DNA of 64,000 nt from Candidatus Nomurabacteria bacterium RIFCSPHIGHO2_12_FULL_42_19 (GTDB lineage Bacteria; Patescibacteriota; Minisyncoccia; Phycocordibacterales; UBA9973), in assembly GCA_001786955.1 (NCBI GenBank), contig MFUM01000004.1:4457-68456 (forward strand). The letters are read 5' to 3'. Below the pieces are notes generated by a model. That model had not been told where the DNA came from. It did not search any database and saw only the letters and a program-made list of their open reading frames with translations. Below, piece by piece: positions 33,433 to 35,208 of this stretch. Position numbers and translations under genes: made by a program. Each line of letters begins with the position of its first letter. Position 1 is the first letter of the stretch.

Positions 33433-35208
33433 ATGGAAAAGACTGAAAAACTAGGCAATTTAAGGCATACTCTGGCTCACCTGCTCGCATCGGCCATCGG
33501 AGAGATTTATAAATTTGATAAAATCAAACTTACCCTCGGTCCGGCCATAGATAATGGCTTTTATTATGATATTGATTTTTGCGGCGAAAAAATGACCGAT
33601 GCGGATTTGAAAAAAATTGAAGATAAAATGCGGAAAAATTTGCCTAAATGGACAGAATGGGAACATAAAGAAATAAGCAAGGACGAAGCGTTAGAATTTT
33701 TCAAAAACGAATACAAGGCGGAATTAATAAATGAAATCGCCCTACGCGGAGAGAAAATTACTACTTATACTTGCGGAGGATTTACTGATTTATGCCGTGG
33801 TGGACACTTGGCGCATCCGTCTAAAGAAATAGATCCGGATTCTTTCAAGCTGGACCGCGTGGCCGGCGCTTACTGGCGAGGAGATGAGAAGAACAAAATG
33901 CTCACCCGAATTTACGGATTGGCTTTTGAGACCAAAGAAGAACTGGATGCATATTTAACACAAAGAGAGGAAGCAGAAAAAAGAGACCATCGAAAGCTCG
34001 GACAAGAGCTTGATATTTTTATTTTTGATGACGATGTCGGCCCGGGACTTCCGCTTTGGTTGCCAAATGGCGCCGTGATTATTGAAGAACTGGAAAAATT
34101 AGCAAAAGAAACGGAAGAAAAAGCCGGATATGTTCGTGTGCGCACTCCCCATATTGCCAAAGAATCAATGTATAAAAAAAGCGGGCATTTGCCTTATTAT
34201 GCAGACAGCATGTATTCGCCGATGGACTGTGAAGGAGAAAATTACTATCTCAAAGCGATGAATTGCCCGCACCATCATAAAATTTTTGCCGCGCGGCCAA
34301 AAAGCTATCGTGATTTGCCCCTGCGGCTTGCCGAATATGGCACAGTCTATCGTTATGAAAAATCCGGAGAACTTTTCGGGCTTATGCGCGTACGCTCCCT
34401 CTCAATGAATGACGCGCATATTTATTGTTCGGAAAAACAATTCGCGAATGAATTTCGCGCAGTTAATGAAATGTATCTTAAATATTTTAAAATTTTCGGA
34501 GTTGAAAAGTATATAATGCGATTCTCTACCCATGATCCGAAAGAACTTGGAAAAAAATATGTGGACGAACCGGAGCTCTGGCTGAAAACGGAAAAAATGG
34601 TCCGTGATGTTCTGATTGAATCAAAAATTCCATATGTTGAGGTGCCGAATGAAGCGGCTTTTTATGGGCCAAAAATAGATGTGCAAGTCTGGAGTGCTAT
34701 TGGGAAAGAGTTTACTCTGGCCACCAACCAGGTTGATTTTGCAGTGCCTAAGCGTTTTGATTTAACATTCACAAATAAAGAAGGCAAGGCAGAAACTCCG
34801 CTTTGTATCCATCGTGCGCCGCTCGGCACCCATGAAAGATTTATCGGCTTCTTGATTGAGCATTATGCCGGCATCTTCCCTCTTTGGCTCTCGCCAGTGC
34901 AGGTAAAAGTAATTCCTGTCCGCACAAATCATAATGAATATGCGAAGCAGATTTTTGAATTATTAAAAGAAAATAACATCCGTGCGGAATTGGATGATAG
35001 CGATGAAAACCTCGGCACAAAAGTCCGCGATGCAAAAAATAAAAAAATGCCTTACTGGATAGTCATCGGCGACAAAGAAATAGAAGCAAAAAAAGTAACT
35101 CTTGAATCCCGCCTGCCTGCGCAGGCAGGCGACGCTGGACAATTAGGACAAATTTCAAAAGAAGAACTCGTCGCAAAACTTGTGGCCGAGGTCAAAATTA
35201 AAATATAA
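33433..35208 (+). CDS. thrS: Threonine--tRNA ligase (no N-terminal TGS domain)
   Basis: MNCPHHHKIF, RDLPLRLAEYGTVYRYEKSGELFGLMRVRS and a C-terminal anticodon-binding domain are present. The ATG at 33433 (MEKTEK..) is the likely start. Confidence 0.88.
   Translation: MEKTEKLGNLRHTLAHLLASAIGEIYKFDKIKLTLGPAIDNGFYYDIDFCGEKMTDADLKKIEDKMRKNLPKWTEWEHKEISKDEALEFFKNEYKAELINEIALRGEKITTYTCGGFTDLCRGGHLAHPSKEIDPDSFKLDRVAGAYWRGDEKNKMLTRIYGLAFETKEELDAYLTQREEAEKRDHRKLGQELDIFIFDDDVGPGLPLWLPNGAVIIEELEKLAKETEEKAGYVRVRTPHIAKESMYKKSGHLPYYADSMYSPMDCEGENYYLKAMNCPHHHKIFAARPKSYRDLPLRLAEYGTVYRYEKSGELFGLMRVRSLSMNDAHIYCSEKQFANEFRAVNEMYLKYFKIFGVEKYIMRFSTHDPKELGKKYVDEPELWLKTEKMVRDVLIESKIPYVEVPNEAAFYGPKIDVQVWSAIGKEFTLATNQVDFAVPKRFDLTFTNKEGKAETPLCIHRAPLGTHERFIGFLIEHYAGIFPLWLSPVQVKVIPVRTNHNEYAKQIFELLKENNIRAELDDSDENLGTKVRDAKNKKMPYWIVIGDKEIEAKKVTLESRLPAQAGDAGQLGQISKEELVAKLVAEVKIKI
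35109..35131. repeat. Perfect 22-bp GC palindrome (cgcctgcctgc|gcaggcaggcg), family B, in frame inside thrS (LPAQAGDAG)
   Basis: A perfect palindrome in the linker before the anticodon-binding domain. Confidence 0.6.

Follow-up and report, generated by a model that had tools for sequence, protein, structure and literature searches.

How did a perfect GC-rich palindrome come to stand within the coding sequence of thrS, the gene for threonine--tRNA ligase (ThrRS), in a genome as AT-rich as that of Candidatus Nomurabacteria bacterium RIFCSPHIGHO2_12_FULL_42_19? The question was raised by a first-pass annotation of 64,000 nucleotides of this genome (contig MFUM01000004.1, positions 4,457 to 68,456; hereafter the window), which was made from the sequence alone and held that such a palindrome in coding DNA calls for a mechanistic origin. 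We found that an 18-bp palindrome was inserted into thrS, and that the identical 18-mer is spread over a whole bacterial superphylum, the Patescibacteria or candidate phyla radiation (CPR); this spread is the main point of the present analysis and goes beyond the view taken in that annotation. The palindrome is probably a copy of a dispersed, ultra-short, non-autonomous selfish element that is translated and tolerated.

The 18-bp insertion in thrS

The palindrome CGCCTGCCTGCGCAGGCAGGCG is identical to its own reverse complement, without a single mismatch on re-inspection, and begins at position 35110 rather than 35109 as first given. No other perfect palindrome in the window is as long; no further match to it was found there with up to 3 mismatches allowed, and it was matched in 0 of 100 dinucleotide shuffles. 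The length alone is only moderately unusual, since the longest palindrome in mononucleotide shuffles averaged 16 bp and reached 24 bp in 1 of 40, and since about 0.02 palindromes of at least 22 bp are expected per 64 kb by our own calculation. For a palindrome with 9 of its 11 pairs G:C (82% G+C) in a window of 41% G+C, an analytic estimate gives an expectation of about 3e-5. The argument that a perfect coding palindrome needs a mechanism holds for this site, where 18 nt absent from 119 orthologues were inserted, but is unsafe as a general rule, as the conserved MreB motif EPMAAAIG alone yields a perfect palindrome of 20 bp. This sequence, CCGATGGCGGCCGCCATCGG (5843-5862, 80% G+C, in mreB at 5233-6279 on the minus strand), was not inserted and serves as a control for GC-rich palindromes in conserved coding sequence.

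The insertion was defined by comparison with the closest relative, P0002, whose ThrRS is 89% identical and whose gene is present on three independent contigs (L121-L123). The empty site in the relative reads GAA TCC CGC GAT GCT, and the filled site in the window reads GAA TCC CG[C CTG CCT GCG CAG GCA GG]C GAC GCT, a difference of exactly 18 nt at a cg^cg target with no bases duplicated or lost. As the relative already has cg^cg, the outer CG on either side of the 22-mer is the old target, and the unit of 22 bp proposed at first shrinks to an element of 18 bp. Among 120 aligned ThrRS orthologues, LPAQAG between TLESR and DAGQLGQ occurs in the window protein only, so that the orthologue alignment suggested in the first-pass annotation finds the peptide conserved in 0 of the 119 others. 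The window protein is 100% identical to P0001 from Candidatus Nomurabacteria bacterium RIFCSPHIGHO2_01_FULL_41_91 (Patescibacteria/CPR, a metagenome-assembled genome), and the identical protein with the insert was found on at least 24 contigs of independent assemblies, including GCA_001785625.1 and one MEGAHIT assembly; with different assemblers thus agreeing, an assembly artefact is excluded. An origin by chance or codon choice was likewise rejected, given that the empty site holds no proto-palindrome and that more than 100 identical copies exist elsewhere. These comparisons show that the thrS copy arrived after the lineage had split from its nearest sampled relative, and that it is a recent, young copy.

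The 18-mer amounts to six codons and is stop-free in every frame. Across the palindrome the intact open reading frame (ORF) reads R-LPAQAG-DAGQ, in line with the first-pass claim that the palindrome is translated; we infer translation as LPAQAG because the ORF is intact and because genic copies concentrate in one phase. The six residues (561-566) lie 25 residues from the C-terminus. They had been placed in a linker before the anticodon-binding domain, but alignments to PDB entries 1nyq, 6l2p and 1qf6 put them at a gap of 5-6 residues in the turn of the last beta-hairpin within that domain, and an AlphaFold2 model (52 orthologues) puts them between strands 554-559 and 569-575; the linker placement is therefore wrong. 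In the model the predicted local distance difference test (pLDDT) score falls below 50 at residues 563-566 and is 84-90 on either side, by which the insert is predicted to occupy a poorly ordered loop. It is most likely neutral or nearly so for ThrRS, and the consequence for thrS itself is probably nil.

As a single strand, the 18-mer forms a 7-bp stem with a GCGC loop, and the stem extends to 9 bp when the flanks are included. The same GCGC loop on a 9-bp stem was obtained in the RNA fold of the thrS segment, and the hairpin alone gave -11.6 kcal/mol when folded as single-stranded DNA. The sequence can also be written as an 11-mer overlapping its own reverse complement by GCGC. An intrinsic terminator was considered and rejected: the hairpin lies inside the ORF, 25 codons ahead of the stop, and is followed by gacgctggacaa without a T-run. 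At the gathering threshold, Rfam returned only tRNAs for the whole window and no known RNA family for the palindrome.

Copies of the 18-mer in other genes and genomes

To place the thrS copy among others, we searched for the exact 18-mer in one genome per species (596 Gb). It was found at no fewer than 120 genome loci, in at least 125 copies and in unrelated places; being obtained with exact strings, these copy numbers are lower bounds, and the genome of the window itself does not figure among the loci listed. Patescibacteria/CPR names stand on 71 of the at least 120 loci listed, with WWE3, Microgenomates lineages, Saccharibacteria, Paceibacteria lineages, Dojkabacteria and others among the classes, and 102 copies among the matches listed lie in loci of at most 52% G+C. 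By our own calculation, fewer than 9 chance copies would be expected in the whole 596 Gb even with G+C set at 50%, and far fewer with G+C of 32-45%. Matches in high-GC genomes are compatible with chance, and a few Bacteroidota genomes among the matches listed have several copies each, within longer repeats. A phage origin was rejected, as most of the 25 viral contigs in which the 18-mer occurs are high-GC, which fits chance or other hairpins. No comparably abundant GC-rich palindrome was found in the same loci, and our literature search for the 18-mer sequence, for LPAQAG, or for a palindrome, REP, hairpin or mobile element of CPR/Patescibacteria returned no description. A terminator-like hairpin upstream of thrS (ACCCCTCTCCTTATCAAGGAGAGGGGT, 33088-33114) recurs at L107 (~5904-5927), adjoining an 18-mer; this sharing suggests that several low-GC bins labelled 'uncultured Gammaproteobacteria' are mislabelled Patescibacteria.

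The edges of the element are sharp. Flanks are unrelated between copies and have background composition beyond positions -1 and +1, with a purine at -1 in ~79% of copies and a preference for pyrimidine at +1, at non-coding sites as well; no conserved target motif was found besides this R^Y step. A metagenome scan with the 14-mer core alone recovered the full 18-mer with its CC...GG ends in 38 of 57 low-GC contig cores, and background composition resumed one base past the 18-mer. The palindrome seldom extends into the flanks. Target-site duplication was seen neither in the thrS pair nor in 73 of 102 sites, which have no direct repeat, the rest having repeats of chance lengths. Copies are solitary, and the 64 kb of the window contain one perfect copy. 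Half-sites (solo arms) are rare, nearly all of them being mutated or nested copies, and a longer element ending in these arms was ruled out by this rarity.

In low-GC loci, 64 copies lie in stop-free stretches of at least 200 codons and 39 in stretches of fewer than 100 codons. The reading phase in the long frames is LPAQAG in 49 cases (77%), PACAGR in 11 and CLRRQ in 4. When an NR^Y codon is the target, insertion in the LPAQAG phase leaves the original residue in place (NRC) and then adds LPAQA and a Gly (GGY). This bias fits selection for a small flexible loop.

A search of the window for GCGCAGGCRGG that tolerated one mismatch gave 12 hits, where 1.2 were expected. The hits include the sites in tsf and pheT that had been assigned to the same sequence family, an assignment borne out by the motif search, with the pheT member degenerate. 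Several copies are nested in one another (Table 1). The tsf island fits a nested model with 2 mismatches in 36 nt and stands opposite a 12-residue gap in the alignment with E. coli EF-Ts (1efu_B); of the two changes in its inner copy, one replaces Cys by Arg and the other Arg by Gly. For the prepilin peptidase island the nested model leaves 4 mismatches in 36 nt, and the cut lies at position 11, mirroring the position-7 cut in tsf. In pheT the arms are split at their exact centre by 18 unrelated GC-rich nt containing GCCTTGGGC, a sequence that also forms the arm of hairpins next to the GIY-YIG genes of L274 and L279, and the arms are split in the same way in L036. The 18-mer is interrupted at position 7, 9 or 11 in each of these four (n = 4 only), in all cases at or inside the GCGC loop, as expected from insertion into an extruded hairpin.

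The ThrRS and NusB loops that received the element were hit independently in other lineages. In the ThrRS of another lineage (P0060, L269), CCTGTCTACGCAGGCAGG is inserted 3 nt downstream of the insertion point in the window, and in that of a third (P0026, L270) a different 18-nt GC hairpin occupies the same loop. An old, decayed member in the NusB-NUDIX gene of the window follows the conserved FEWDF directly; at that site the NusB orthologue of L121 likewise shows a decayed copy, and that of Saccharibacteria (L103) has a pristine 18-mer directly after FEWDF, at the matching site. Inserts of 6-8 residues in the same ThrRS beta-hairpin loop were noted in at least five other lineages (P0026, P0040, P0049/P0055, P0060 and P0096; DLPAGAGG, DTFDKLSAG, NIGADGKG, NLSTQAGA and DLAAKDGK), two of which were read at the DNA level, one as a decayed 18-mer copy and one as a different GC hairpin. 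The 18-mer also lies in or beside genes for superoxide dismutase (L078, L080, L117), UvrC-like proteins (L081, L178, L218) and UvrD-like helicases (L044, L098, L268), at positions that differ within each family, the copy in L098 being 86 nt outside the ORF.

RNA genes are a further class of site. In L027, L037, L042, L038 and L110 the 18-mer separates nt 10 from nt 11 in a tRNA-Gln that is orphan or defective and lies beside an intact tRNA-Gln. The ORF adjoining the pair encodes a GIY-YIG nuclease in L027 and L038 (degenerate in L110) and an HNH nuclease in L037, and is absent in L042. The order in these cassettes, which often lie downstream of dnaX, is the orphan 5' part with the 18-mer, the GIY-YIG/HNH ORF and the intact tRNA-Gln; the cassette resembles a homing-type element by which a tRNA gene is split and restored. 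In L199 a GIY-YIG ORF lies between two 18-mer copies, each within a tRNA-like fragment. In L248 (9466-9802, minus strand) the 18-mer lies in a hairpin loop of a weak match to RNase P RNA class A (23 bits against a gathering score of 100 bits) that contains the conserved GAGGAAAGUCCG, and a GIY-YIG ORF overlaps or abuts the 3' part of the match.

To view the association from the nuclease side, we looked up seven matches to a profile built from five GIY-YIG proteins, a small, palindrome-blind sample of a family with more than 7800 members. Five of the seven loci have an orphan 5' tRNA fragment cut by a GC-rich palindrome, then the GIY-YIG ORF and an intact tRNA. The exact 18-mer is present in one of these five (L273), the others carrying different palindromes such as GCCCAAGGC...GCCTTGGGC. 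The other two sampled genes come after a tRNA-Ser and a conserved GC-rich spacer, as does the one in the window (62152-62397). Of the 8 GIY-YIG ORFs in the fetched loci, 5 have an 18-mer no more than 420 nt away. When the ORFs lying up to 600 nt from copies were clustered, two recurrent groups emerged, GIY-YIG and the dnaX/tRNA-Gln neighbourhood, with 5 loci each, and no recurrent transposase family was found in that range. A general neighbouring-gene partner was rejected, given that most copies, the thrS one included, have no nuclease gene nearby, and the 18-mer adjoins GIY-YIG/HNH genes only in tRNA-linked cassettes. No endonuclease ORF adjoins thrS, and the only GIY-YIG gene of the window is 27 kb away, so the locus is not a homing-endonuclease cassette. 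GC-rich hairpin modules and small GIY-YIG genes do travel together at tRNA genes, with a causal role standing as a lead.

Table 1. Positions of the palindrome, of related family members and of the tRNA-Gln cassettes (window positions unless a locus is named).
Feature	Position	Strand	Description and basis
Inserted element CCTGCCTGCGCAGGCAGG	35112..35129		18-bp perfect palindrome; empty site of the relative
22-bp palindrome	35110..35131		18-mer plus pre-existing CG on either side (target cg^cg)
thrS, threonine--tRNA ligase, 591 aa	33433..35208	+	ORF 33403-35208; protein identity
ThrRS predicted tryptic peptide			LPAQAGDAGQLGQISK
tsf (EF-Ts) member	8605..8640		36 nt, nested copy cctgcct[CCTGCCCGCGCAGGCGGG]gcgcaggcagg; encodes LPPARAGGAQAG; Pfam EF_TS
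Prepilin peptidase member (gene 49239-50063, minus strand)	49558..49593		nested cctgcctgcgc[CCAGCCTGCGCTGGCAGA]agacagg; Pfam Peptidase_A24
Degenerate pheT member (gene 38413-40269, minus strand)	39983..40018		arms tctgcctgc...gcaggcggg
Old, decayed member in the NusB-NUDIX gene	32949..32982	-	CCTGCTCGCCTCGCCACAGTCGAGCGCAGGCGGG, directly after conserved FEWDF
tRNA-Gln cassettes	L027 1724-2105; L037 3525-4013; L038 6740-6914; L042 360-487; L110; L273 1450-1823

Several observations concern neighbouring or unrelated repeats. In GIY-YIG/tRNA-Ser cassettes (L274, L276-L279 and L284), palindromes lie upstream of the GIY-YIG ORF (~1440-1500), inside an orphan tRNA fragment; cassette palindromes include GCCCAAGGC-n6-GCCTTGGGC, CCGCCCAAGGCGG-ac-CCGCCTTGGGCGG and CCAGCCTAGGGCTGG, and L275 is an insert-free allele. 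The GIY-YIG gene of the window belongs to a region (62152-62563, minus strand) in which it comes after a gene (62475-62563) that resembles tRNA-Ser and has ACT as its odd anticodon. The GC-rich structured spacer there holds GGCGTGAtgaaATCCGCC, which recurs as GGCGTGAnnnAGTCCGCC at the same position in unrelated genomes (L280, L282 and L283), and may represent an RNA element, linked to GIY-YIG genes, that has so far gone unrecognised. The primase gene dnaG (14214-15950, minus strand) contains a perfect, in-frame hairpin of 45 nt, TAGCGGACGTTGGACGTCCGagttcCGGACGTCCAACGTCCGCTA (14504-14548; 20-bp arms and a 5-nt loop), which encodes 15 residues. Its arm, CGGACGTCCAACGTCCG, was counted twice among GC-rich hairpins of the scanned low-GC sequences, and the hairpin, unrelated in sequence to the 18-mer, may represent a second palindromic-insert family. 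An imperfect inverted repeat at 52472-52518, GACCACAGGTCGGACCTGTGGG / CCCATAGGTCTGATCTGTGGTC, forms two adjacent hairpins between ORFs 51242-52450 and 52522-53580 and is also unrelated to the 18-mer.

Competing explanations for the palindrome

Precise insertion, optional presence, non-orthologous copies, nesting, decay and survival only where tolerated are the features on which we base the reading of the 18-mer as selfish DNA. The element would be kept only where the host gene or RNA accommodates a self-contained hairpin or a small flexible loop. Our best guess for its movement is mobilisation in trans by a structure-recognising enzyme acting on an extruded hairpin or on single-stranded DNA, as suggested by a size too small to encode anything, the absence of target duplication, the purine^pyrimidine preference and nesting at the stem-loop junction or centre.

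Several points weigh against this reading. Neither a mobilising enzyme, nor a transposition intermediate, nor filled/empty polymorphism within one population was seen, and the comparison of filled and empty DNA consists of one clean pair, thrS against P0002. It is odd that the exact 18-mer should be common to phylum-level lineages, which would not be expected of a neutral parasite and needs frequent horizontal spread or a conserved recognising protein. The apparent uniformity of copies is in part an effect of searching with exact strings. The taxon labels are those of the depositors and are unreliable for metagenome-assembled genomes. Translation of LPAQAG is inferred, not observed, and target preference could partly produce the phase bias, in a manner inseparable from selection.

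If the selfish-element reading is correct, the 18-mer would be among the smallest repeats that behave as mobile DNA, consisting of two 9-bp arms only, and an enzyme with an 18-bp palindromic specificity would be valuable for CPR biology and as a sequence-specific DNA tool. The element would also be a concrete source of the many small loop insertions by which CPR lineages differ in their housekeeping proteins (ThrRS, EF-Ts, PheT, NusB, superoxide dismutase and UvrC) and structured RNAs; as the same loops are hit repeatedly, such indels would be poor phylogenetic characters. A bolder form, which we regard as rather unlikely, is that of a minimal mobile module, the bacterial counterpart of mitochondrial GC clusters, in which a Patescibacteria-wide trans machinery writes the 18-mer into purine^pyrimidine steps, its own hairpin loops included, with the abundant small (~80 aa) GIY-YIG nucleases as candidate partners. 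It would imply an undescribed mechanism of DNA insertion and steady six-residue loop insertions in essential proteins throughout the superphylum.

Two rival explanations are less well supported than the selfish element, and to each we attach only a slight probability. According to the first, the 18-mer is the binding or cleavage site of a conserved dimeric protein, on the model of parS/ParB, Noc, MatP or a homodimeric homing endonuclease, and the thrS copy is a functional chromosomal site. Perfect two-fold symmetry (2 x 9 bp), identity in very distant lineages and about one perfect copy per 64 kb in the window would all be accounted for, and parS sites are themselves 16-bp palindromes that are conserved across phyla and often intragenic. 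Yet the thrS copy came as a ready-made 18-mer and not via point mutation, the copies occupy non-orthologous places in each genome, many of them decay, some are nested in one another, and some lie in orphan tRNA fragments; in the DNA covered here, nothing connects them with an origin or terminus.

The second holds that the palindrome is a scar of double-strand-break repair, in which the two ends were each extended by a templated CCTGCCTGCGC and annealed via GCGC, with the breaks perhaps made by small GIY-YIG/HNH nucleases. It would explain why the 18-mer is exactly an 11-mer and its reverse complement overlapped by GCGC, and why the target is neither duplicated nor shortened; it also gains from the hairpins that interrupt orphan 5' tRNA fragments beside GIY-YIG/HNH genes (in the five of seven sampled loci and in L027, L037, L038, L110 and L199) and from the proximity of GIY-YIG ORFs to the 18-mer in the fetched loci. 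To our knowledge, no enzyme adds such a sequence to DNA ends; moreover, solo arms are rare, the GIY-YIG gene of the window is far from thrS and most copies are without a nearby nuclease gene, and nesting explains tandem 11-mers equally well.

That the insert is an adaptive ThrRS loop for binding of tRNA or a partner, the DNA palindrome being incidental, is very improbable. The anticodon-binding domain does contact tRNA, and inserts occur at this loop in several lineages, but the same 18 nt code for LPAQAG in dozens of unrelated proteins and also stand in non-coding DNA and RNA genes, the loop is modelled at low confidence, and the nearest relative lacks the insert. Least probable of all is a local origin by chance codons, template switching, quasi-palindrome correction in replication or an assembly artefact, for which one may cite the mreB palindrome and the fact that template switching is a known route to perfected quasi-palindromes, but which is refuted by an empty site without a quasi-palindrome, the identical 18-mer at more than 100 unrelated sites, and the recovery of the insert in independent assemblies by different assemblers.

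Relation to known palindromic and mobile elements

The closest analogues of the 18-mer are the Rickettsia palindromic elements (RPE), the yeast mitochondrial GC clusters and the REP/REPIN sequences, and from each of these families it departs in defining features (size, sequence, target duplication, extragenic location or GTAG head). RPE, reportedly described by Ogata et al. in 2000, are selfish palindromes that stand in frame in essential protein genes and in RNA genes of a small-genome bacterium; they are translated, occupy surface positions where insertion is permissible, and may be present in one close relative and absent from another. The thrS copy likewise is an in-frame insertion that leaves the ORF intact (591 aa) and is absent from 119 orthologues and from the DNA of the relative. 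RPE are elements of ~100-150 bp that are imperfect, add 30-50 residues and are confined to Rickettsia. In contrast, the present element has 18 bp with sharp edges, is perfect, adds 6 residues and is identical across phylum-level CPR lineages, and it shares neither the size nor the consensus of RPE. Discussions of RPE are given in PMC1779305 and PMC1458961.

The mobile G+C clusters of yeast mitochondria and their derivatives, the byp elements, are short GC-rich hairpins of a compact AT-rich genome that are optional between strains, occur in frame in var1, may be nested or in tandem, and lie beside free-standing endonuclease ORFs. The 18-mer is similarly a GC-rich palindrome in an AT-rich genome, optional between relatives and tolerated in frame. 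The yeast clusters are organellar, measure 30-60 bp and fall into several classes with AT-rich target flanks, whereas the 18-mer has another sequence than classes M1-M4/G/V, a bacterial host and a purine^pyrimidine target. The byp elements are skipped by the ribosome; the 18-mer preserves the frame and is stop-free, which points to translation, unlike byp.

REP/REPIN sequences (PMC2817692, PMC3337134, PMC3479197), which are mobilised by RAYT tyrosine transposases, resemble the 18-mer in being short GC-rich hairpins, non-autonomous, without target duplication and presumed to move as single-stranded hairpins. They differ in being extragenic, usually imperfect and species-specific, with a GTAG head, inverted doublets and hundreds of copies per genome. 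The 18-mer is solitary, mostly intragenic, present in few copies per genome and identical across phyla, not extragenic or in doublets, and has no GTAG/GTGG head, its flanks being at background beyond the -1/+1 preference.

[quoted passage not shown] Bacterial MITEs (for example the Coxiella QMITEs, PMC5896051; review, PMC10969869) are non-autonomous inverted repeats able to lengthen ORFs while leaving them intact. They differ in size (50-500 bp), in having an internal region between their terminal inverted repeats, and in having target-site duplications. The present element has two 9-bp arms only and no target-site duplication. Insertion at the loop of an extruded palindrome, finally, is known for elements of the IS1397/ISKpn1 type and would be comparable to what is seen in tsf, the prepilin peptidase gene, pheT and L036; IS1397 and ISKpn1 are full insertion sequences with a transposase, whereas here the inserted unit is another 18-mer.

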